Shown: positions 14,606-44,747 of the stretch, one piece after another
How the letters are laid out: the number at the start of each line of letters is the position of its first letter
Numbering within the stretch: position 1 is the stretch's first letter
Source of the DNA: Candidatus Helarchaeota archaeon
GTDB lineage: Archaea; Asgardarchaeota; Lokiarchaeia; Helarchaeales; RDOG01
Assembly: GCA_019058315.1 (NCBI GenBank)
Contig: JAHPZH010000002.1
Span: 1,133,910 to 1,197,909, forward strand
Reading direction: 5' to 3'
Length of the DNA stretch: 64,000 nucleotides
Made by a program: the position numbers and the translations under genes
Notes under the pieces: model-generated
The model's input: only the letters and a program-made list of their open reading frames with translations
What the model was told of the DNA's origin: nothing
The model's database searches: none

Positions 14606-14770
14606 TCTAATATTCAGAAATGAATATTTTAACCACTCTAGTAAGATTTATTCTGATCTGGTAACTGTGTAGTAATTTTAAATTAAATTTTTTCATTTTT
14701 TTAATTAATTATCTGAATTATACTTGAAAATTTAATGACTTAGCAAAAAAAAGAAAATAAATGAAAGAAC

Positions 14771-16855
14771 TTACCATGATGAAAATATTAGCGCCGATAC
14801 TATGGAATCGTATATTTTTATGGTATGATCAGATGTATTTGAACCATAACACGAAATCGAGGTAAACGAGGATAATTGAGCAGTTACTCTCGAAGAACCT
14901 TGAACAGTTAATGAGTTTATTGTTGAGTTTCTAATAGTTCCTATACTTGCTCCCATAAATAATATTGTATCGATTTGAGAGTTCGTATCAATAGTCGCAT
15001 TAGATTTATCAAGGAAAAACGCGAATCCTGTTATACCAATCGTAGAACTGTTATATAGAATAACCTTTGAGTTGTTATATGTATTCAATGTAGTAAAACT
15101 TGCATTATCCAATGTAGCACTAGCATTATCGACCAACAAGATGGCAAGTCCCAAAGTAGGAAGGTCATTAATGTTGATATTTGCTGTATTATTTACTTCT
15201 AGATAAAGTATTGAACTTGAACCAATCGGAGAATTAATAATTGTGGTATAGTTCACGTAATTTCCCGGTCCGCTTAACCCATTTTCATTGTATAAAATGG
15301 TTCCTGAATAAATCACATACCCTTCTGCAAGAGATGTGATGGAACAATTTTCAATCGAAGCAACTGCAGATCCACTAATTCCCAAAATGTATATACTACA
15401 ATTTACAATTTTTACGTTACCAGTTGGAAGACCTATTTTCGGAGAAGTAACCGTTAAAGATTGAATAATTGTACTGAAATTTAATGAGACTGTATTTGTC
15501 GTACTTATCGATACGATTGGCATAAAACTATTATTCATGGCTATTAGCGAAGAATTCATCGAAATAGAAATTATATTTTTTGCGGAACAATTATTAAAAG
15601 TTACTTTTGAATTTTCAGCTGCCTGAATAGAAGGTGTCACAACTGTAGATATAATATTCCCTGATACAGTCGAATTTCTGATCAATGCTTGAGAATTACC
15701 ATAAGAATTTAGTGAAGTTATATTTGAATTCATAACCGACAACTGAGAATTGTCAGAAATCGTTGTAGTTGCAGTTCCAATCCCCATTGCTAAATTCGAA
15801 ACATTTACATTGTTTATTTGAGCAGATGCAGTATCATATAAATTAAGGACCAGAGAAGACATTGTAGACCATCCATTAATATAAACTATTGCAGAATTAT
15901 TTGCCACTACACTTACAAGGTTTGAAGCAGGAAGAGGCATGTTTATAATTCTGGTATTATTTTCATAAGTACCTGGTGCTGGAAGGAGACCATTATTAAT
16001 ATTAGTTGTACCTTGATAACAAATTATACCATAAGCTAATGTGCTTACAGAAGAACCATTTAAAGTTAACCGTGCAATTCCTGAAACTATTGCTATTGTA
16101 ACCATTGAATTATATACAATCGCACTTGAACCTTCTGATATACCAAGTGCAAGTATAGTCGAATTTATAATCTTTGCCGGTAAAGGCGGTCCAGATAGTC
16201 CGATTGTTTTATAAGGACATGCCATATTTATACTATTAATACTGGCATTGTTAATGTAAAGGGTTGAGTTTCTCATTAGCATAAGGTATGTTACAGTCGA
16301 ATTTGGTAAGATCTCTATTTCACTCGAACCCAGAAAAGAAATTGTTCCACTTAATGCCAGATCTGTTATTTGTTGAACAATAGAGTTTTTAACTTGGACT
16401 TTCGAATTATCTGCAAGTGCGACTTGATTTATTGTAGAATTTTCAATTACTAATTCTGAATTATTATGTAAGAAGATAGTTAACATAGGGGCGTTTATAT
16501 TTCTCATAGTAAGTTTTGCATCATTATAAATATGGATAGAACTTAAACTAGTTGATGTGCTTGTACAATTTTCAAGTTTCGTCGAATTTAATACACTAAT
16601 TCCATTTATTTTGCCTGCAGTGATAGTTAAATCGTCTTCGATGATATTATTTCCGCTATCTATTAGTATACCGTAATTATTTGAATCTATTGTTGTATTC
16701 CTGCCATAAATAGGAGTTATCGTTTTTCCTGCACTTGGTGGTGGGAGTATCAAGAAACCTCCAGGAGATGGTCCGATAAAAATTAATGCAACAAATACTA
16801 TACTGATGATAGCTATTATTGAAACAGTTGTTACAATTTTACCATTTTTTTCCAT
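14771..16855 (-). CDS. membrane-anchored beta-solenoid (beta-helix-like) cell-surface glycoprotein
   Basis: N-terminal TM/signal then Pro linker; Asn/Ser/Ile/Thr-rich repeats (I.NS.I); very many N-x-S/T sequons. Confidence 0.75.
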   Translation of the reverse strand: MEKNGKIVTTVSIIAIISIVFVALIFIGPSPGGFLILPPPSAGKTITPIYGRNTTIDSNNYGILIDSGNNIIEDDLTITAGKINGISVLNSTKLENCTSTSTSLSSIHIYNDAKLTMRNINAPMLTIFLHNNSELVIENSTINQVALADNSKVQVKNSIVQQITDLALSGTISFLGSSEIEILPNSTVTYLMLMRNSTLYINNASINSINMACPYKTIGLSGPPLPAKIINSTILALGISEGSSAIVYNSMVTIAIVSGIARLTLNGSSVSTLAYGIICYQGTTNINNGLLPAPGTYENNTRIINMPLPASNLVSVVANNSAIVYINGWSTMSSLVLNLYDTASAQINNVNVSNLAMGIGTATTTISDNSQLSVMNSNITSLNSYGNSQALIRNSTVSGNIISTVVTPSIQAAENSKVTFNNCSAKNIISISMNSSLIAMNNSFMPIVSISTTNTVSLNFSTIIQSLTVTSPKIGLPTGNVKIVNCSIYILGISGSAVASIENCSITSLAEGYVIYSGTILYNENGLSGPGNYVNYTTIINSPIGSSSILYLEVNNTANININDLPTLGLAILLVDNASATLDNASFTTLNTYNNSKVILYNSSTIGITGFAFFLDKSNATIDTNSQIDTILFMGASIGTIRNSTINSLTVQGSSRVTAQLSSFTSISCYGSNTSDHTIKIYDSIVSALIFSSW

Positions 16856-32976: not shown

Positions 32977-33021
32977 AATTGAGAGCAATAACAATCTCCT
33001 TATTTTTTTAACAATGAGTTT

Positions 33022-34758
33022 ATGAGTGAAATTGTTATGACTGAAAAGGATGAAGTAAAGGAAAAATTGGTAGACCCCGAGTCTATAAAGGAATTGGAAA
33101 AAGAAAAACGGAAAAAATCCAGAAAAAAAAGAAGAGAAGAAGAACAAAAAATAATGTTTCCTACAAAGATGACCAGATATATTTGGTTTGTTATCATTTT
33201 CGCTTCACTTGTCAATGGTTTTGATAGTTGGTGTTCAGTTGCACTCAACTTGGCTATGGGATCATTAGTTGAAAATTATGATATTTTAGGGAAATTAACA
33301 AACCCGAATCTATTTGTATACTTTGGTCTCGCAGGCAGTCCTGTTACGATGGGGGTTATACTTAGCATTGCGGGGACTGGAGTCATTGCTGCAACTTCAT
33401 TTAAATACTTGACTGATAAATATGGTCGAAGACCATTAACCCTTTTGACCGCTATTCTCTTTACAGCTTTTACTGTTTTAACAGCATTTGCACCAGCAAC
33501 TTCCGAAGGTTTGTTAATATTTCTTACTTTTAGAGTTTGCTCAAATTTCTTTCTTGCTGCTGATGTTGTAATAATAATCGTAGCCGAAGAAAGTCCCAAT
33601 CATTTACGAGGACGGTTAATTGGAATAGTGTTTGCATTAAGTGCACTTGGAGGAACGGCTTGTGGGCTGGTTCAATCAGCAGGAGTTAGAATTCCGATCC
33701 CTGGTCCTTGGGGATTTGGTGGATCTTGGTCAAGTCACATGACTGTTTGGCAAAGTATGTTCTTTCTATCCATAATTGGCTATTTATTTATTATTCCTCT
33801 GTTTTTCTTTCTTAAGGAGACCGGACCATTTAAAGTCATGAAAAAATATGAGGATTGGAGAAAGAAGAAGGGGTTAAAACCTAAAACTGGTTGGTTTACT
33901 CCTCTACAAAGAAAATATGCACGTGGTCTAACTGTTGGTTGTGTTATTGTATTTCTAGCTCAATTGATGTATTTTTCTCAAGGAACATTTTTTGCACTTT
34001 ATTATGCAAAAGAACTTAATGTAAGTACTGGACGTTTGGGAATTTTATCATTCCCGGTGTTAGTATCGGGAGGGCTTGGGCTTTTTATAGCTGGTTCAGT
34101 TATTGATAGATGGGGAAGATTACCGACTCTACACCGGGCTGGTATGGGAGCTATGATCACAGGCGCTTCATATGCTTGGCCGTCTATATTCATTGCTGGC
34201 GATATACCAAATTCTCTTATTACAGGTATTGTAGTATTAAGTTTATCATTATTTATTTTTTTTGTTACATTAATGCTTGTATGTGGTGCTTTGGCTGGGA
34301 TCGAAATGGTGCCAACCCATATTCGCTCGACTACCCAAGGATGGATAGGAGCTATTTCTCGAGCAGCTGTGATGGCGGTCCCAATAATGGTAATGTTCGG
34401 AGCGGAAGCTGTAGGTGGATTAGGGCTTTCATATCAATTTATTTTTGCATTAAATGTAATGCCTTTAACAACAATTATGTTTACAGTTTACGTTTTGGCT
34501 GTTGAAGGAAAAGGACGTCAAATCGATGAAATAGTAGCTACAGAAATTTACTCTAAAATGAAGAGGGTGAGCGATTATAATAAACCTTATTACTACTATT
34601 TTCTTACTATGACTGCACAATTTACTTGCCTAACGATATACGGTCTCACAACAAATGGAACTCTTTTAGGCATAATTATAATGGTCAGTATATATTTTAG
34701 TATATCAATTATATGTTTTATAATAATTATAATTGTCCGAGGATGGTTCACAGAATAG
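33022..34758 (+). CDS. MFS transporter (sugar-porter-like motifs) with two extra C-terminal TMs, paralogue 1
   Basis: LTDKYGRRP motif A, EESPNHLRGR, LKET, DRWGR, E.VPTHIRST, EGKG. Confidence 0.9.
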   Translation: MSEIVMTEKDEVKEKLVDPESIKELEKEKRKKSRKKRREEEQKIMFPTKMTRYIWFVIIFASLVNGFDSWCSVALNLAMGSLVENYDILGKLTNPNLFVYFGLAGSPVTMGVILSIAGTGVIAATSFKYLTDKYGRRPLTLLTAILFTAFTVLTAFAPATSEGLLIFLTFRVCSNFFLAADVVIIIVAEESPNHLRGRLIGIVFALSALGGTACGLVQSAGVRIPIPGPWGFGGSWSSHMTVWQSMFFLSIIGYLFIIPLFFFLKETGPFKVMKKYEDWRKKKGLKPKTGWFTPLQRKYARGLTVGCVIVFLAQLMYFSQGTFFALYYAKELNVSTGRLGILSFPVLVSGGLGLFIAGSVIDRWGRLPTLHRAGMGAMITGASYAWPSIFIAGDIPNSLITGIVVLSLSLFIFFVTLMLVCGALAGIEMVPTHIRSTTQGWIGAISRAAVMAVPIMVMFGAEAVGGLGLSYQFIFALNVMPLTTIMFTVYVLAVEGKGRQIDEIVATEIYSKMKRVSDYNKPYYYYFLTMTAQFTCLTIYGLTTNGTLLGIIIMVSIYFSISIICFIIIIIVRGWFTE

Positions 34759-34830
34759 AAACTATATTCAAATACCTCTCTGACAAATTTAAGAGAAATT
34801 GAGTAATTAACAGTCCAAGAGGGATATTAT

Positions 34831-34962
34831 TTACCTCCCTAACCACTCCTGAAATGAAAATAGAGGATCTCCTTTAAAAAATTCTAGATATATTAATGTA
34901 ATAATGATAAAAAATATACATAAACCAATGGCTACAACAGTATAGATTTGATAATTTTCCAT
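34831..34962 (-). CDS. unannotated 43-aa single-TM microprotein, paralogue 1
   Basis: MENYQIYTVVAIGLCIFFIIITLIYLEFFKGDPLFSFQEWLGR*, AAGGT upstream; same-length paralogue at 36910-37041. Confidence 0.8.
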   Translation of the reverse strand: MENYQIYTVVAIGLCIFFIIITLIYLEFFKGDPLFSFQEWLGR

Positions 34963-35099
34963 CTTGTTTACCTTTTGAATCCTATAATTTAAATATATAT
35001 TTGAATATGTAGTTGTTTACCAAATTATTAAATTCTTATAATTTAAATTTTGAATTTGGAAATAATAACAAAAACCCCATTATATTTGACAAGGAGATT

Positions 35100-36836
35100 A
35101 TGCGAGAGATTTGTATGACTGAGAAGGACGAAGTAAAGGAAATAATTGCAGATCCAGAGTCTGTAAAAAAATTAGAAAAAGAAGAACGCAAAAAATCCAG
35201 AAAAAAAAGACGAGAAGAAGAAGAAAAAATAATGTTTCCTACAAAGATGACCAGATATATTTGGTTTGTCATAATCTTCGCTTCAATTGTCAATGGATTC
35301 GACAGTTGGTGTACAGTAGCAATCACTTTAGCTATGGGATCACTGGTAGAAACATATGATATTTTGGGGAGTTTAACAAATCCTAATCTTTTTGTATATT
35401 TTGGTCTCGCAGGCAGTCCTGTTACGATGGGGGTTATACTTAGCATTGCGGGGACTGGAGTCATTGCTGCAACTTCATTTAAATATCTGGTTGATAAATA
35501 TGGTAGAAGACCATTAACTCTTTGGACTTGTATTCTATTTACAGCTTTTTCTGTTTTAACTGCGTTCGCACCAGCTACATCTACTGGATTGGTAATATTT
35601 TTAATATTTAGAGTTTGCTCAAATTACTTTCTTGCTGCTGATGTTGTAATAATAATCGTAGCCGAAGAAAGCCCAAACCACTTACGAGGACGATTAATTG
35701 GAATAGTTTTTGCATTAAGCGCATTTGGTGGAACAGCTTGTGGAATGGTCCAATCAGCAGGAGTTCGAATTCCGATTGCTGGACCTTGGGGATTTAATGG
35801 AGCTTGGTCAAGTCACATGACTGTTTGGCAAAGCATGTTCTTCCTATCCATAATTGGCTACTTATTTATTATTCCACTATTTTTATTTCTTAAGGAGACT
35901 GGACCATTTAAAGTAATGAAAAAATATGAGGATTGGAGAAAGAAGAAGGGGTTAAAGCCTAAAACTGGTTGGTTTACTCCTTTACAAAGAAAATATGCAC
36001 GGGGTATGGCAGCTGGTTGCGTTGTAGGGTTTTTAGCTCAATTAATGGCATATGCTCAAGGTACATTTTTTGCAATTTATTTTGCAAAAGAATTGAATTT
36101 AACTCCTGATGTGTTAGGAGTTTTAGCATTCCCTGTATTAATGGCTGGAGGAGTTGGACTTTTTATAGCTGGTCCAGTTATTGATAAATGGGGTAGACTA
36201 CCTACTATTCATAGATTCGGTGTTGGAGGTTTAATTGCATATGCATCATTCGTATGGCCTTCTGTTTTTATTGTTGGTGACTTACCCAATGCCCTTATTA
36301 CTGGTATAGTCACATTCAGCACCGCTTTGGGTGCCTTTTGTGTTACTATAATGGTTGTTTGTGGTGCACTTATTGGTATTGAATATTTTCCAACTCATAT
36401 CCGAAGTACTGCAGGGGGATGGATCGGTGCAATCTCAAGAGGAGCCGTTATGGCTGCCCCAATAATGGTGATGTTCGGGGCTGAAAGCATAGGTGGGTTA
36501 GGGTTATCATATCAGTATATATTCGCACTTATGGGAATGCCGTTGACGACTGTTATGTTTACCGCTTATGTATTGGGTGCTGAAGGGAAAGGTCGGGGAC
36601 TTGATGAGATAGTAGCTGCAGAAATCTATACTAAAATGAAGAAAGATAGGGAGTATAAGAGACCATATTATTACTATTTTATTTCTATGATTGTACAATT
36701 CGTTTCCCTTACAATATACGGTCTTTGTACTAGCGGAAGCATTTTTGGCATAATTTCAATGGTTAGTTTATATTTTATTTTATCAGTAATATGTTTCCTT
36801 ATAATAATGAAGGTTCGAGGAATGGTCACAGAGTAA
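35100..36836 (+). CDS. MFS transporter with two extra C-terminal TMs, paralogue 2
   Basis: colinear with paralogue 1 from MREICMTEKDEVKE (ATG 35100); same motifs. Confidence 0.9.
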   Translation: MREICMTEKDEVKEIIADPESVKKLEKEERKKSRKKRREEEEKIMFPTKMTRYIWFVIIFASIVNGFDSWCTVAITLAMGSLVETYDILGSLTNPNLFVYFGLAGSPVTMGVILSIAGTGVIAATSFKYLVDKYGRRPLTLWTCILFTAFSVLTAFAPATSTGLVIFLIFRVCSNYFLAADVVIIIVAEESPNHLRGRLIGIVFALSAFGGTACGMVQSAGVRIPIAGPWGFNGAWSSHMTVWQSMFFLSIIGYLFIIPLFLFLKETGPFKVMKKYEDWRKKKGLKPKTGWFTPLQRKYARGMAAGCVVGFLAQLMAYAQGTFFAIYFAKELNLTPDVLGVLAFPVLMAGGVGLFIAGPVIDKWGRLPTIHRFGVGGLIAYASFVWPSVFIVGDLPNALITGIVTFSTALGAFCVTIMVVCGALIGIEYFPTHIRSTAGGWIGAISRGAVMAAPIMVMFGAESIGGLGLSYQYIFALMGMPLTTVMFTAYVLGAEGKGRGLDEIVAAEIYTKMKKDREYKRPYYYYFISMIVQFVSLTIYGLCTSGSIFGIISMVSLYFILSVICFLIIMKVRGMVTE

Positions 36837-36909
36837 GGATTTATATTTAAATATGGTTTTAATCAAATTAAGAATGATCTACTCTCTATTAAAAAATAAG
36901 GGAAATCTT

Positions 36910-37041
36910 TTATCTCCCTAACCAATCCTGAAGTGCAAATAGAGGATCACTTTTAAAAAATACAAGATAGGTTATTGTAACAATTACAAAAATTAAACTT
37001 ACACCAATAACTGCAATAGTATAAACTTTATAATCTTCCAA
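36910..37041 (-). CDS. unannotated 43-aa single-TM microprotein, paralogue 2
   Basis: TTG start after GTGA: MEDYKVYTIAVIGVSLIFVIVTITYLVFFKSDPLFALQDWLGR*. Confidence 0.8.
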   Translation of the reverse strand: MEDYKVYTIAVIGVSLIFVIVTITYLVFFKSDPLFALQDWLGR

Positions 37042-37212
37042 TTTATTCACAGCTTCTTTTTTTTTCCTTTATTTTTCATATTAATACTTAATAATTTTTA
37101 TCTTAATTTTCTGTTTTGAAAGAAAATATGATAAATCTTCTTATAAATTGAACTTTATTTTTATTGGATAAAAAAAAATAGATTTCATACATTTTAAAAA
37201 GAAATTTCAGCA

Positions 37213-39012
37213 CTATAAGCTGAAATATCGCCTTTTTTGAGAATCATCCATACCCTTAATCCAAAAAAATGCGTCTTCTTTATTATCTACTAAATTATTT
37301 TTTCCTTTTAAAATACTGTTCCATGGAAAAGATTTTGGATCAAACAGACCTATTCCTGAATCTGTCCACCATTCAATGCGTTGTTTTATCATTTCAAGAG
37401 AACGATGGTCCCAAACTTGAAAAGAAGTATAACATTGGAATGTATCCATTTTTCTCATAGCTTGAAAAATTTTTTGAGTGATAATATTTTTTCGTCTTTT
37501 AGAATCAAGAGAATAATATTGAAAAAGTAGAATTAAAATTTCAGTCGCTTCCTGAATACTTTTCAATGGTTCTAGTACTTCTTTTTGTTGTTTAATTATC
37601 CTTTTTAAAATTTTGTTGCATTCTTTTAATTTATCACCGTCTAAAGTTCTCCAAAAATCCTCAAGTAATAAAATTGCATTTTTAACATCTTCTTTTTCGT
37701 TCATAGAAGATGAAAGCAAACCCGCAACTTCGCTGCTGATTTCATTACCTCCAATTTCAGGATTCCAAAGATATCTTCCGAAAACATAATCATCGATAAA
37801 ACGGGTTTTAGGTAATACCCTATACCCAACCATACCTTTCAAATTTGGACCTAATGCTTTTATTGAATCTGTTATTCTTTCTTTTAACAAATGTATATGA
37901 GGTCTTGGAAATATCAATTGGTTTTCCATACCAGCTTCTGGATCGATTAAAAATACAAAATCATATACCTCGTAACCTTGCTCTATAGCCATTTTTAGTG
38001 TTTTTTGGGTTATATCTAAAATCTTAATATCCTTTGGAAATTTCGAAAATAATTGATCTCGGAGCCCCTCGATAGGTGGAATTTCAAAATCTTCTTTAAT
38101 ATTCGCAAACCAGGTCATAAAGAAGAGCCGTTTCGAGTTTCCATTTTCTTTAATAAATTTCAGATGTTCAACAAGTAGATCGGCAATATTATTCCTACAA
38201 TATTCGCAATTACAACCTCCACCTTCAAAAGAAATCGAAGCATGACTAGGAACTGTATTAAATCTTTTAATTGTGTATTTAAGGAGTTTATCACCAATCG
38301 CTTTTCCTTTTTGGGTACAATGAGTAACTCCCTGATAAAGAAAGATTTCTGCTCTAATCTCTGGGAATTTAATCCATAATTCGGTAGGGATTTCATCAAA
38401 AACATATAATGAAATGATTTCAAGACCTATATCTGCGGCATATTTAAATACTTTATCTAAAACGTCATATCTCCATGCATTTTTTTCCAATTCTTCGTAA
38501 TCAGGATGATATAACATTACTGCATGCATTATAAACATAATTGAGTTGTAATTAAATGACCGAAGCCTATTGAAATATTCTTTCCACTGTGAGAACGTCC
38601 AATTTTCAGTCGAAAGATCCCCTAATCCATAAGGCATATTTACCATCATACAACGTGTTTCAAAGAATGGAGTTTCAAATATATTCCAATCAATTGAAAA
38701 AGGATCTTGTGTTTGCTGTTCCTTTAGCTTCATATGTAGATAATATATTCCATTTGCAAGACCTTGGTCCCCTATAGATGAAATAAAAATATCTTCATTT
38801 TTGCTATAAATTAGAAAATCATCAATTTTTTTCAGTTTATTTGCATTCTCTAAATTTAATTTTCGAATTTCTTCTGAATTATTTTGCAAAGTTAGAAAAG
38901 TAATAGTTCTAGTTGAATTTGAATCTGATTCTCCAATCCAACTTGCTAAAACCTTAATAGCTTGTTCAATTTGTTTGGTTTTATTATTATTATAACTTAT
39001 TTTATAAGTCAT
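37213..39012 (-). CDS. putative glycoside hydrolase (GH20/GH67-type N-domain + TIM barrel, CxCxxC), paralogue 1
   Basis: DDFLI...IFISSIGDQGLANGIYYL; TPFFETR...W....WKEY..RL....YN; FEGGGCNCEYC; no signal peptide. Confidence 0.6.
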   Translation of the reverse strand: MTYKISYNNNKTKQIEQAIKVLASWIGESDSNSTRTITFLTLQNNSEEIRKLNLENANKLKKIDDFLIYSKNEDIFISSIGDQGLANGIYYLHMKLKEQQTQDPFSIDWNIFETPFFETRCMMVNMPYGLGDLSTENWTFSQWKEYFNRLRSFNYNSIMFIMHAVMLYHPDYEELEKNAWRYDVLDKVFKYAADIGLEIISLYVFDEIPTELWIKFPEIRAEIFLYQGVTHCTQKGKAIGDKLLKYTIKRFNTVPSHASISFEGGGCNCEYCRNNIADLLVEHLKFIKENGNSKRLFFMTWFANIKEDFEIPPIEGLRDQLFSKFPKDIKILDITQKTLKMAIEQGYEVYDFVFLIDPEAGMENQLIFPRPHIHLLKERITDSIKALGPNLKGMVGYRVLPKTRFIDDYVFGRYLWNPEIGGNEISSEVAGLLSSSMNEKEDVKNAILLLEDFWRTLDGDKLKECNKILKRIIKQQKEVLEPLKSIQEATEILILLFQYYSLDSKRRKNIITQKIFQAMRKMDTFQCYTSFQVWDHRSLEMIKQRIEWWTDSGIGLFDPKSFPWNSILKGKNNLVDNKEDAFFWIKGMDDSQKRRYFSL

Positions 39013-39154: not shown

Positions 39155-40963
39155 TTATCCCCAAAATTGCGGAATTCTCATACCTTTAATCCAAGGTTGA
39201 ACATCTTTTTTCTCATCAATTAAATGATATTTTGCTTTTAAAAGACAGTTCCATGGAAATGATTTTGGATTAAAAAGTCCACTTCCAGGATCTGTCCACC
39301 AACGAACTCGCTGTTTTATCATCTCAAGTGACACAGCATTCCAAGCTTGATATGAGGTATAGCACTGGAATGTGTCCATCTCCCTCATAAGTTGAAATAT
39401 TTTTTGAATAAGCCCCTGTCTTCGTCTTTGGGAGTCAATCGAATAATATCGAAAGAGCAATTCTAAAATTATAATCGCTTCTTGGATGCTTTTCAATGGT
39501 TCTGATATATTTTTATTTTTTTTATTAACCATTTTTAAAATATTCTTACATTCCTTTAATTTTTCACCGTCAAAAGTTCTCCAAAAATCCTCAAGTAATA
39601 GAATTGCATTGGTTACGTTTTCTTTTTCCTTTATAGAAGAAGATAGCAAACCCGCAACTTCGCTAATGATGTTATTAACTTCAATTCCAGGATTCCAAAG
39701 ATATCTGCCTAAAAGATAATCATTAATAAAACGCGTTTTAGGTATTAATCTATAACCAACCATTCCTTTAAGATTTGAACCTAATGCTTTTATTGAATCT
39801 GAGATTCGTTCTTTTAACAAATTTATATGAGGTTTAGGAAAAAGGGATTGATTTTCCATACCTTCTTCAGGATCTATGAAAAATATAAAATCATATATCT
39901 CATAACCTTGATTTGCTGCCATTTTTAACGTTTTTCTGTTCACATCTATAATTTTTACTTCCTTTGGAACCTTAGAAAACAATTTTTCACGAAGTCCTTC
40001 AATTGGGGGTGATTCAAAATGCTCTTTTACATTGGCAAACCAGGTGCAAAAAAATAAATGCTTTGGTTGTGCATTTTTATTAATAAAATCCAAATAATTT
40101 ATAATAAGATCGACAATGTTGTTCCTACAATATTCACAATTGCATACTCCTCCCTCAAATGCAAACAGAGCATGACCATCCACATTTTTAAATCTATTGA
40201 GGGTGTAACTAAAAAGTTTTTCTCCAAACTTTCTTCCTTTTTCGCTACAATATGAAATACCTTGATAACCAAAGACTTTCGCTCTGATTTCTTGATGTTT
40301 AATCCATAAATCTGTTGGAATTTGATTAAAAACATATATTAAAATGATTTCTAGACCTATATCCCTTGCATAAGTAAAAACTTCTTCAAATATATCATAT
40401 TTCCAAGAATTTTTTCTCAATTCTTTAAAATTAGGATTATATAGCATCGCTCCTCCAATTGTAAACACAATCGAAGTATAGTTAAAAGATCGAAGTCTAT
40501 TTAGATACTCTATCCACTGTGAAAAAGTCCAAGTTTCAGTAGATAGCCCCCCCAAACCCAATGGAAAATGTAAGGTCACCCCTCGAGTTTCAAAATGTGG
40601 TGTTTGAAAAAGATCCCAATTAATGGAGAATGGGTCTTGTTTTTGACATTCTCTTAATTTCATGTACAAATAATATATAGCATTTGCAAGCCCTCGGTCC
40701 CCAATGGACAAAATAAAAATCTTATTTTCTTTATCTTGATTGTTTTTATTGTCACTAGAAATTAAAAAATCATCTACTTTTTTTAGATTATTCACTTTCT
40801 CTAAATTTAATTTTTGAATTTCTTTTGAATTATTTTGAAGTGTAAGAAAATTAAAAGTGTTTTTAGCATTTGAATCAGGTTTTCCAGCCCAACTTGTAAA
40901 AACCTTAATAGCTTGTTCGATTTGTTTGTTCCTATTTTTATTAAAATATATTTTGTAGGTCAA
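39155..40963 (-). CDS. putative glycoside hydrolase, paralogue 2
   Basis: colinear with paralogue 1; TPHFETRG, FEGGVCNCEYC; TTG start. Confidence 0.6.
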   Translation of the reverse strand: MTYKIYFNKNRNKQIEQAIKVFTSWAGKPDSNAKNTFNFLTLQNNSKEIQKLNLEKVNNLKKVDDFLISSDNKNNQDKENKIFILSIGDRGLANAIYYLYMKLRECQKQDPFSINWDLFQTPHFETRGVTLHFPLGLGGLSTETWTFSQWIEYLNRLRSFNYTSIVFTIGGAMLYNPNFKELRKNSWKYDIFEEVFTYARDIGLEIILIYVFNQIPTDLWIKHQEIRAKVFGYQGISYCSEKGRKFGEKLFSYTLNRFKNVDGHALFAFEGGVCNCEYCRNNIVDLIINYLDFINKNAQPKHLFFCTWFANVKEHFESPPIEGLREKLFSKVPKEVKIIDVNRKTLKMAANQGYEIYDFIFFIDPEEGMENQSLFPKPHINLLKERISDSIKALGSNLKGMVGYRLIPKTRFINDYLLGRYLWNPGIEVNNIISEVAGLLSSSIKEKENVTNAILLLEDFWRTFDGEKLKECKNILKMVNKKNKNISEPLKSIQEAIIILELLFRYYSIDSQRRRQGLIQKIFQLMREMDTFQCYTSYQAWNAVSLEMIKQRVRWWTDPGSGLFNPKSFPWNCLLKAKYHLIDEKKDVQPWIKGMRIPQFWG

Positions 40964-42929: not shown

Positions 42930-44747
42930 TTAAATCTCCCATAATTCTGAAATTTTCGTTTCTTTTATCCAAGGCAATACATCTTTTTTATCATTAATCA
43001 AGTGATATTTTGCTTTTAGAAGGCAGTTTGCTGGAAAAGACCTTGGATTAAAATTACCACTTTCAGGATCTGTCCACCAATGAACTCGCTGTTTTATTAC
43101 CTCAATTGACACGGCATTCCAAGCTTTATATGATGTATAGCAATGAAATGTTTCAGTATTTCGCATAACTTGCATAATTTTTTGAATAATTGCTCTTTTT
43201 CGTCTTTTAGAGTCATGTGTATAATATCGAAAGAGCAATTCTAAAACTATAATCGCTTCTTGGATGCTTTTCAATGGTTCTGACATATTTTTTTGTTCTT
43301 TAATGACCATATTTAAAATTTTCTTACATTCTTTTAATTTATTACCGTCTAAATTTATCCAAAAATCCTCAAGTAATTGAATTACTTTTATTACGTTTTC
43401 TTTTTCGTTTATAGAAGAAGATAGCAAACCCGCAACTTCACTAATAAGTTCATCAACTTCAATTTTAGGATTCCAAAAATATCTACCCTCAACATAATCA
43501 TTAATAAAACGCGTTTTAGGTATTAATCTATAACCAAACATTCCTTTTAGAGAGAGAGAGGGTAATGTTTGAATTGAATCTAATATTCGTTCCTTTGACA
43601 AATTTATAAGAGGTCTTGGAAAAAGAGATAGATCTTCCATTCCTGCTTCGGGATCCATAAAAAATATAAAATCAAATATTTCATAGCCTTGATCTGCAGC
43701 CATCTGTAAGGTTTTTCTGCATACGTCTATGATCTTTACATCTTTAGGAATCTTAGAAAATAATTTATTCCGAAGCCCTTTAATTGGAGGTGATTCAAAG
43801 TGCTCTTTTACATTAGCAAACCAAGTTATAAAGAAAAGTCGTTCTGGCTCTGCATTTTTTTTAATAAAATTCAGGTAATCAACAATAAGATCAACAATAT
43901 TGTTCCTACAATAATCACAATTACAACCGCCCCCCTCAAAGGCAAAAAGAGCATTACTTGGGACTGTTTTAAATCTATTAAGTGTGTATTTAAGAAGTTT
44001 TTCCCCAATTTCTTTTCCTTTTTCACTGCAATGGGTGATTCCTTGATAACCAAATATATGTCCCCTTATTTCTGGAAATTTAATCCATAATTCAGTTGGT
44101 ATATGATTAAAAACATAGATTAAAATGATTTCCAGACCTATATCCTTTGCATAATTAAATACATCTTCAAACATATCATATTTCCAGGAATTTTTTTTCA
44201 ATTCCTCAAAATCAGGGTGATATAGTGCCCATGTACTTATTAGAAATATAATCGATGTGTAATTAAATGACCGAAGTCTATCCAAATATTCTTTCCAATG
44301 TGGAAAATCCCATGTCTCAGTGGAAAGTCCCTCTAAACCAAGTTTAAGATTAAGAAGAACCATACCACGTGTTTCAAAGTAGGGGGTTTGAAAAATATCC
44401 CATTTAATAGAAAACGGGTCTTTTATTTGCTGTTCTCTTAATTTCATGTATAAATAGTATATAGCATTTGCTAGACCTCGCTCTCCTATCGATAAAATAA
44501 AAATATCATTTTCTTTACGTTGATTTTCATTCTTTTCGCTAAAAATTAGAAAATCGTCTATTTTTTTAAGTTTATTCGCTGTCTCTAAGCTTAATTTTTG
44601 AATTTCTTTGGAATTTTTTTCCAATGTGAAAAGAACAAATTCATTTGTTGAATTTGAATCTGATTCTCCAATCCAATTTGTTAAAACTTTAATAGCTTGT
44701 TCAATTTGCTTGCTTTTATTCTTATTGAACCTTATTTTGTATTTCAT
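42930..44747 (-). CDS. putative glycoside hydrolase, paralogue 3
   Basis: colinear with paralogues 1 and 2; TPYFETRG, FEGGGCNCDYC. Confidence 0.6.
   Translation of the reverse strand: MKYKIRFNKNKSKQIEQAIKVLTNWIGESDSNSTNEFVLFTLEKNSKEIQKLSLETANKLKKIDDFLIFSEKNENQRKENDIFILSIGERGLANAIYYLYMKLREQQIKDPFSIKWDIFQTPYFETRGMVLLNLKLGLEGLSTETWDFPHWKEYLDRLRSFNYTSIIFLISTWALYHPDFEELKKNSWKYDMFEDVFNYAKDIGLEIILIYVFNHIPTELWIKFPEIRGHIFGYQGITHCSEKGKEIGEKLLKYTLNRFKTVPSNALFAFEGGGCNCDYCRNNIVDLIVDYLNFIKKNAEPERLFFITWFANVKEHFESPPIKGLRNKLFSKIPKDVKIIDVCRKTLQMAADQGYEIFDFIFFMDPEAGMEDLSLFPRPLINLSKERILDSIQTLPSLSLKGMFGYRLIPKTRFINDYVEGRYFWNPKIEVDELISEVAGLLSSSINEKENVIKVIQLLEDFWINLDGNKLKECKKILNMVIKEQKNMSEPLKSIQEAIIVLELLFRYYTHDSKRRKRAIIQKIMQVMRNTETFHCYTSYKAWNAVSIEVIKQRVHWWTDPESGNFNPRSFPANCLLKAKYHLINDKKDVLPWIKETKISELWEI

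Follow-up and report, generated by a model that had tools for sequence, protein, structure and literature searches.

In the window analyzed here, a stretch of 64,000 nucleotides of contig JAHPZH010000002.1 from a Candidatus Helarchaeota archaeon (assembly GCA_019058315.1), two minus-strand open reading frames (ORFs) of 43 codons, pep1 and pep2, each lie convergent to a gene for a major facilitator superfamily (MFS) transporter, MFS1 and MFS2, respectively (Table 1). On the evidence of sequence comparison, we consider it very probable that both are real protein-coding genes. With moderate confidence, and relying on gene neighborhood and structure modeling, we further propose that their products are independently transcribed one-helix subunits that would dock at a groove formed by transmembrane (TM) helices TM9, TM12, and TM13 of the neighboring MFS protein and modulate the transporter. 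The two ORFs had been described in an earlier note, made from the DNA letters alone, as hidden genes for accessory or regulatory transporter subunits. The source genome (5.79 Mb, 12 contigs, 30.5% GC) holds five paralogues of the family, pep1 to pep5, the first two of which are in the window.

Coding evidence for pep1 and pep2

An ORF of 43 codons is unremarkable in this DNA, where 52 ORFs of at least 35 residues overlap a 12-kb stretch, and the evidence for pep1 and pep2 is therefore their conservation. As the earlier note had observed, both ORFs are 132 nt long, align without indels, and share the motif FFKxDPLFxxQxWLGR; our translations and the Pfam matches of the neighboring genes (MFS_1/Sugar_tr) agree with its account of two minus-strand ORFs that each converge with an MFS gene. 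The two ORFs are 79% identical at the DNA level (27 differences in 129 nt), whereas the spacers between the MFS stop codons and the peptide stop codons align at only ~50%, which bears out the divergence of the flanks that had been reported. The conserved tail of pep1 is FFKGDPLFSFQEWLGR, and orthologues of this gene were found at loci L036 (84% amino acid identity) and L051. The translation given earlier for pep2 is likewise correct, but its ATG start is not: the aligned first codon is TTG, and an in-frame GTG at position 37050, 9 nt (three codons) upstream, would extend the product to 46 residues. The L051 orthologue of pep2 has ATG at the aligned codon, and the GTG is present there as well.

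We submitted the 12 homologues with DNA to a frame test and determined dN/dS by the Nei-Gojobori method. Stops or frameshifts in homologues had been named earlier as grounds for doubting the proteins; all 12 sequences can be read through in the sense frame, and each of the other five frames holds 1 to 9 stops. Comparisons within the family gave the following results. (i) pep4 and its orthologue at L037 differ by 13 synonymous and 4 non-synonymous changes (dN/dS of 0.04; P = 3e-7 for the synonymous excess). (ii) pep3 and its orthologue at L052 differ by 16 synonymous and 3 non-synonymous changes (P = 6e-9), the dN/dS being undefined because dS is saturated. (iii) For pep5 and three orthologues, dN/dS ranges from 0.03 to 0.17, and P for the synonymous excess from 1e-7 to 3e-3. 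(iv) When pep1 or pep2 is compared with pep3, dN/dS is ~0.2, again with an excess of synonymous changes (P < 0.01).

We did not accept the comparison of pep1 with pep2 as a proof of selection: with 6.5 synonymous and 20.5 non-synonymous changes, its dN/dS is 0.82 and indistinguishable from 1; for MFS1 and MFS2, the values are 0.19 for dN/dS and 0.67 for dS. To obtain a null for the pair, pep1 was randomly mutated 20,000 times with 27 changes each. Among these mutants, 25% were free of stops, and 0.57% were both free of stops and as similar by BLOSUM62 as pep2 is (P ~ 0.006). The replacements between the two peptides are far more conservative than random, in agreement with the mostly conservative changes noted before, and the 27 differences fall 15/4/8 on codon positions 1/2/3, as expected for exchanges among I, V, L, and F. 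The purifying selection that had been deduced from this pair is thus upheld as coding constraint by the orthologues, the reading frames, and the BLOSUM62 null, but not by the argument from the pair itself.

Shine-Dalgarno-like motifs (AAGG, GGAG, GGTG) are located 7 to 15 nt upstream of most family members. In pep1 the motif is AAGG at -12, and the clearest one, AAAGGAG, is conserved upstream of the genes of the pep5 branch. Of the RBS-like sequences noted earlier for both window genes, the one before the TTG of pep2 is weak. Neither pep1 nor pep2 was among the ORFs listed for the window, and their exact sequences are also absent from a collection of 15 billion proteins that does include pep3, pep4, and pep5 from this genome; standard gene calling therefore missed two of the five family copies in one genome. 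Both genes were uncalled, but the family is not fully hidden, since several homologues have been deposited as hypothetical proteins (e.g., MFX1452462.1).

Linkage to one clade of an expanded MFS family

MFS1 and MFS2 belong to an unusual MFS family that has expanded to 15 paralogues in this genome, 45 to 79% identical to MFS1 and distributed over contigs C5, C2, C3, C7, and C9, with four copies in tandem on C2 and two in the window. In all 15, the N terminus is extended by a charged stretch, and two additional TM helices follow TM12 at the C terminus. Profile comparison relates the family only distantly to sugar porters, with GlcP as the best match in the PDB (E = 9e-11), and the family was found in 3 of the 40 relatives searched, with a single match of 34 to 40% identity in each.

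Four of the five peptide paralogues are separated by 37 to 190 nt from a gene of this MFS family, and a family peptide adjoins exactly 4 of the 15 MFS paralogues. Beside the other 11, hidden divergent copies of the peptide were sought, and none was found. The maximum-likelihood tree places the four peptide-linked MFS proteins in one clade of 10 sequences (99/99 support). Nine of the 15 paralogues in this genome are in the clade, its tenth member being an orthologue from a different assembly, and none of the six paralogues outside this clade has a peptide. The peptide-linked MFS genes are thus confined to one MFS clade. A separate observation concerns a paralogue at C7:101667: a 68-aa ORF with two hydrophobic helices (C7:101136-101342, minus strand) lies head-to-head with it, ~325 nt upstream, and has no similarity to the peptide family by profile.

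In the window, pep1 is tail-to-tail with MFS1 and at the same time head-to-head with MFS2, and pep2 is tail-to-tail with MFS2. The arrangement recurs in other assemblies. At L036, the pep1 orthologue is tail-to-tail with an MFS1 orthologue that is 90% identical over the C terminus; at L037 and L038, the pep4 orthologue has been kept tail-to-tail with its MFS; and at L052, the pep3 orthologue, though uncalled, has been kept head-to-head with its MFS. The metagenomic member P0058, though divergent, likewise has an MFS gene tail-to-tail with it, whose product is 45% identical to MFS1. The tail-to-tail spacers span 37 to 73 nt. A genomic association with the transporter is therefore found, and it is incomplete, because pep5-type members are unlinked.

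Predicted complex of pep1 with MFS1

We modeled the complex of MFS1 and pep1 with our own alignments in three runs and with three controls. The interface score ipSAE was 0.65, 0.67, and 0.65 in the three runs, and the best of the three controls reached 0.00. In the calibration, the ipSAE mark is reached by 58 of 80 solved complexes and by 2 of 110 mismatched pairs, counts that are rough here because our own alignments were supplied. The runs agree in at least 92% of contacts, and the partner has a pLDDT of at least 71. To our knowledge, no similar complex has been described, and it therefore seems unlikely that the model reproduces a known structure.

The confident contacts join peptide residues 3 to 29 with residues 362 to 385, 471 to 485, and 516 to 538 of MFS1. 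From the hydropathy profile and the DRWGR motif, we take the three segments to be TM9, TM12, and TM13, the last being specific to the family. The order of the contacts is parallel to TM9 and TM13, which would place the N terminus of pep1 inside, its C terminus outside, and the conserved tail on the outer side. Three residues of the contacted region, H366, G369, and W381, are common to all eight peptide-linked MFS proteins and to most of the peptide-holding clade; the other MFS clade has R/K/E, S/C/N, and F/C/A/V at these positions, respectively. This pattern fits a binding site that would have arisen with the peptide-holding clade, although residues of this diagnostic kind exist in any clade. 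Covariation between peptide and MFS was also considered, but there were too few independent pairs; the replacement Y7C in pep4, which coincides with Y520W in its MFS, has no support from P0058 and was not used.

Proposed role and alternative explanations

We propose the following course. Each peptide would be transcribed on its own, since its gene is always on the strand opposite to the transporter gene. The peptide would then insert into the membrane with its N terminus inside and its C terminus outside, and its helix would dock in the lipid-facing groove of TM9, TM12, and the extra TM13, while the tail FFKxDPLFxFQxWLGR would remain at the outer membrane face. So docked, it would serve as an accessory or modulatory subunit matched to its transporter paralogue and would influence the stability, activity, or specificity of that transporter. 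The opposite-strand arrangement weighs against an obligatory stoichiometric subunit and fits a conditionally expressed modulator better. More tentatively, independently transcribed microproteins of an Asgard lineage may have diversified with the expanded 14-TM MFS family, single transporter paralogues having a cognate one-helix subunit bound at TM9/TM12/TM13. This would amount to a paralogue-specific small-protein control of nutrient uptake in an archaeal relative of eukaryotes, with the unlinked pep5 branch as the ancestral, general-purpose form.

A number of observations weigh against a subunit role. (i) The members pep5, P0008-12, and P0054/55 are always located between a DUF7064 gene and split PEP-utilizers/PPDK_N genes and never beside an MFS gene, and the visible neighbor of P0057 is not an MFS gene either. 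(ii) Eleven of the 15 MFS paralogues have no adjoining peptide, and five of these are inside the peptide-holding clade. (iii) The peptide gene is never on the MFS strand and is convergent in the case of pep1, pep2, pep4, and P0058 and divergent in the case of pep3; with opposite strands and a variable orientation, coexpression is not implied. (iv) pep1 and pep2 evolve fast, with a dN of 0.23 compared to 0.13 for their MFS partners. (v) The tail of pep1 (residues 30 to 43) makes no confident contact in the model. (vi) Unrelated natural proteins served as controls of the model; they were probably not TM helices, and a generic hydrophobic helix might dock likewise. Strict linkage, the absence of which the earlier note would have taken against its accessory-subunit idea, thus fails with pep5 and its conserved orthologues; the idea itself draws indirect support from the adjacency in several genomes, the restriction to one MFS clade, and the complex model.

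The alternative that survives best is that the peptides are real membrane microproteins with a role unrelated to the MFS, the adjacency being a relic of history: the peptide gene would have traveled with duplicating segments that contained an MFS gene and would not have been parted from it since. The peptides and transporters of the window did arise together in a single tandem duplication, of which L051 retains the unduplicated state (an ECH gene and an MFS gene on one strand, followed by the peptide gene and a 599-aa gene on the other). That the most conserved branch, pep5, is not linked to MFS genes, that most MFS paralogues lack a peptide, and that the genes are on opposite strands would all be expected from such hitchhiking. 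However, the adjacency has survived the divergence of the MFS paralogues to ~50% identity, with dS saturated, while all other neighbors changed. It is kept in both orientations, recurs in the distant P0058 and possibly in sister genera, and is accompanied by a complex model that passes its controls. We consider this alternative rather unlikely.

Much less probable is that the peptides are toxins resembling those of type I systems, or secreted, bacteriocin-like cargo, with the MFS protein as exporter or immunity factor. Type I toxins such as Hok, Ldr, TisB, and Fst have 30 to 60 residues and one hydrophobic helix and are often unannotated, and the peptides resemble them in size and in their single helix; moreover, each would be transcribed as its own unit near a convergent gene, with spacers of 37 to 73 nt, which would permit an antisense overlap. 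Those toxins differ in having a cis-encoded antisense RNA, usually cationic ends, and no conserved linkage to a transporter. Here, the net charge is acidic or neutral, and neither an Rfam match nor a significant RNA structure points to an antitoxin RNA. A full-length, uninterrupted TM helix is unsuited to a secreted bacteriocin, and there is no leader or processing motif. Furthermore, the N terminus and the tail are conserved under strong purifying selection, and members also occur at a locus without a transporter.

It is very improbable that the ORFs are noncoding and belong instead to a bidirectional terminator, a 3' untranslated region, an RNA antisense to the MFS 3' end, or some other DNA or RNA element lying between the convergent genes: the dN/dS of the window pair, the short hairpin over the stop codon of pep2 with a T-run behind it, and the omission of both ORFs by the gene caller would suit such an element, but in a genome of 30.5% GC every homologue has an open sense frame and no other open frame, three orthologue sets show an excess of synonymous changes, replacements are conservative, and the family occurs in two orientations and at a different locus. 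A scan of positions 33000 to 38000 against Rfam with E values up to 1 gave no match, and the stop-codon hairpin folds of the two spacers, with z-scores of +0.16 and -1.03, were no better than shuffled sequences.

Comparison with known small-protein partners of transporters

According to a preprint, MttS (49 aa) and MttQ (98 aa) are small subunits of the trimethylamine transporter MttP of Methanosarcina mazei that form a membrane complex with MttP and tune transport (bioRxiv 10.64898/2025.12.02.691841). By analogy of function, this system is the closest archaeal precedent for the role proposed here, and AcrZ-AcrB the closest bacterial one. As in our case, archaeal small proteins are encoded beside a secondary transporter. 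In contrast, MttP is of the DME family and not an MFS protein, mttS and mttQ are in the transporter operon whereas the peptide genes use the strand opposite to the transporter gene, the sequences showed no similarity, and the binding of peptide to MFS is modeled only.

AcrZ (49 aa) is a single-TM microprotein of Escherichia coli that binds the RND pump AcrB in a lipid-facing groove; it is transcribed separately from the pump, which it modulates without being essential. The peptides share with AcrZ the single TM helix and, as predicted here, the docking in a lipid-facing groove of a multipass transporter. They differ in that the partner of AcrZ is a bacterial RND protein and acrZ is unlinked to acrB, whereas the peptide genes adjoin their presumed partner. 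Membership in the AcrZ family, as judged by homology and an RND partner, was not found, as there is no Pfam or NCBIfam match and the neighbors are MFS genes. AcrZ and MgtS are conditionally expressed modulators in bacteria. SgrT (43 aa), which is encoded in the small RNA SgrS, inhibits the glucose permease PtsG of the phosphotransferase system (PTS) posttranslationally. Like the peptides, it is very small and, by chance, of the same length, and its target is a sugar transporter; unlike them, it has no clear TM helix, targets a PTS EIIC protein, is enterobacterial, and lies within a small RNA, and there is no homology.

Among MFS folds, the closest likeness is to single-pass partners of eukaryotic transporters, namely, basigin and embigin with monocarboxylate transporters and NAR2 with NRT2. 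The TM helix of these partners packs on peripheral MFS helices and is needed for stability, trafficking, or activity, and a single TM helix against the MFS periphery is also what our model predicts. These proteins, in contrast, are large, have ectodomains, are not microproteins, and are unrelated in sequence. The peptide family is homologous to none of MttS/MttQ, AcrZ, or the eukaryotic single-pass MFS partners. The literature yielded no described small-protein partner of a prokaryotic MFS transporter, and MFS transporters are not mentioned in a 2025 review of bacterial small membrane proteins. The concept of small-protein transporter partners is already established, and the role of the peptide family is a predicted one. 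Small membrane proteins that tune transporters have so far been known mainly from a few bacterial cases and one archaeal case. If the proposed role is true, the family would provide a sequence-defined and structurally modeled candidate in Asgard archaea, where small proteins have hardly been studied. The practical gains are modest and comprise two genes for annotation, a family signature, and a testable peptide-transporter pair.

Distribution and anatomy of the peptide family

To find homologues, we searched 5.8 billion proteins by word index and scanned 1.84 billion representatives exhaustively with HMMER. The matches were small proteins only, of 43 to 62 aa, from related Asgard metagenome-assembled genomes (MAGs), labeled Promethearchaeota, Hodarchaeota, and Helarchaeota, and from metagenomes; the HMMER scan returned nine proteins, all of the peptide family. 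When 40 relatives and 400 representative genomes of the phylum were searched with the profile, nothing credible turned up outside the window's own genome. The family is thus lineage restricted, being limited to this genome, three related MAGs, and some metagenomic contigs. No Pfam family was found for pep1 and pep2 and no NCBIfam family for pep1 and pep5, and a search of the ESM atlas gave unnamed clusters only, with scores of at most 0.80. A weak profile match in the window at ~14721 to 14828 (E = 0.037) was dismissed, as it coincides for the most part with the 3' end of a same-strand ORF of 694 aa.

Family members start with M-[DE]-x-Y-[KRQ], followed by one hydrophobic helix of ~23 residues that ends in (I/V)(Y/F)..FF and contains a conserved Gly in the MFS-linked branch. 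A hydrophobic segment of 19 residues scores 2.7 to 2.9 (Kyte-Doolittle), and the peptides are net acidic or neutral. With this segment, coding constraint, and a size below ~60 aa, they would qualify as small proteins with one TM helix. The tail is K-x-D-P-L-F-x-F-Q-x-W-L-G-R or a variant of it in the MFS-linked branch; in the pep5 branch it is N-N-P-L-N-L-L-S-D-E, together with a short second hydrophobic stretch. The uncalled pep3 orthologue at L052 (2700-2867, minus strand; GCA_013375355.1) has its first 32 residues nearly unchanged and a different, longer tail (55 aa in total), which could reflect a frameshift or a real tail variant.

The pep5 branch (53 to 55 aa; L007 1501-1665, equivalent to C3:552608-552769, and L039, L040, and L041) is the best conserved, as judged by the dN/dS values given above. 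Its genes are located ~175 to 250 nt upstream of the PEP-utilizers/PPDK_N genes and on the same strand in most assemblies, with one assembly having an insertion. This branch may belong to the DUF7064/split-dikinase system rather than to a transporter.

Sister genera, whose MFS orthologues are 34 to 40% identical to MFS1, contain one-helix ORFs of 31 to 33 aa with the pattern MDNNTK...CG..V..S..IY (L019 3457-3552, plus strand; L021 1277-1378, minus strand; L058 1495-1593, plus strand). In genomes G001 and G004, this ORF is head-to-head with the MFS orthologue, and in G002 it is 3.5 kb from an MFS gene that carries two stops. G004 and G002 additionally have a gene for a polyferredoxin-like membrane protein of 300 to 315 aa tail-to-tail with this ORF. 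An hhalign comparison with the peptide family gave an end-to-end alignment with a probability of 74% and an E value of 2.7e-5, scores of a kind that TM composition inflates; these ORFs are possible tail-less relatives of the family. The two in-frame stops of the G002 MFS orthologue (L020; G002:C9:12744-14432) are TAG and TAA, and this gene may be a pseudogene or the result of an assembly error.

Features of the window and its surroundings

The features are compiled in Table 1. The database form of MFS1 has 573 aa and starts at 33037. For MFS2, the frame is already open at a TTG at 35013, but the ATG at 35100 has an AAGGAG motif before it and yields the 578 aa of the database form; the start is probably this ATG, and the longer reading of 607 aa from 35013 is probably wrong.

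Table 1. Coordinates of the peptide genes, their MFS neighbors, and adjacent features
Feature	Position	Strand	Description	Basis
pep1	34831..34962	-	43-aa single-TM gene, ATG start, TM at ~residues 6-29	Translation, orthologues, frame test
pep2	36910..37041	-	43-aa paralogue of pep1, aligned start codon TTG	Translation
MFS1	33022..34758	+	578-aa ORF, 12-TM MFS core and two extra C-terminal helices; convergent with pep1	Pfam MFS_1/Sugar_tr, hydropathy, C-terminal alignment
MFS2	35100..36836	+	578 aa, 79% identical to MFS1; divergent from pep1, convergent with pep2	Pfam MFS_1/Sugar_tr
MFS1-pep1 spacer	34759..34830		72 nt, tail-to-tail, diverged from counterpart 36837-36909	Alignment
MFS2-pep2 spacer	36837..36909		73 nt, tail-to-tail; T6 run right after short hairpin spanning pep2 stop codon	
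pep1-MFS2 divergent intergenic region	34963..35099		137 nt, AT-rich; could contain a shared promoter region	
599-aa gene, family unassigned	37213..39012	-	Same strand as pep2, ~165 nt upstream of pep2; order kept in L051	
pep3	C5:1241330-1241464		Paralogue of pep1/pep2	
pep4	C9:50062-50193		Paralogue of pep1/pep2	
pep5	C3:552608-552769		54-aa form of the family	

The 599-aa gene upstream of pep2 has a T9 run after its stop codon. It is one of three genes for paralogous proteins of 599 to 602 aa that are 65 to 73% identical, the other two being located at 39155-40963 and ~42939-44747, also on the minus strand; no match to Pfam, NCBIfam, or PDB sequences was found for the paralogues in the window. 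The L051 counterpart of the 599-aa gene is 87% identical to it.

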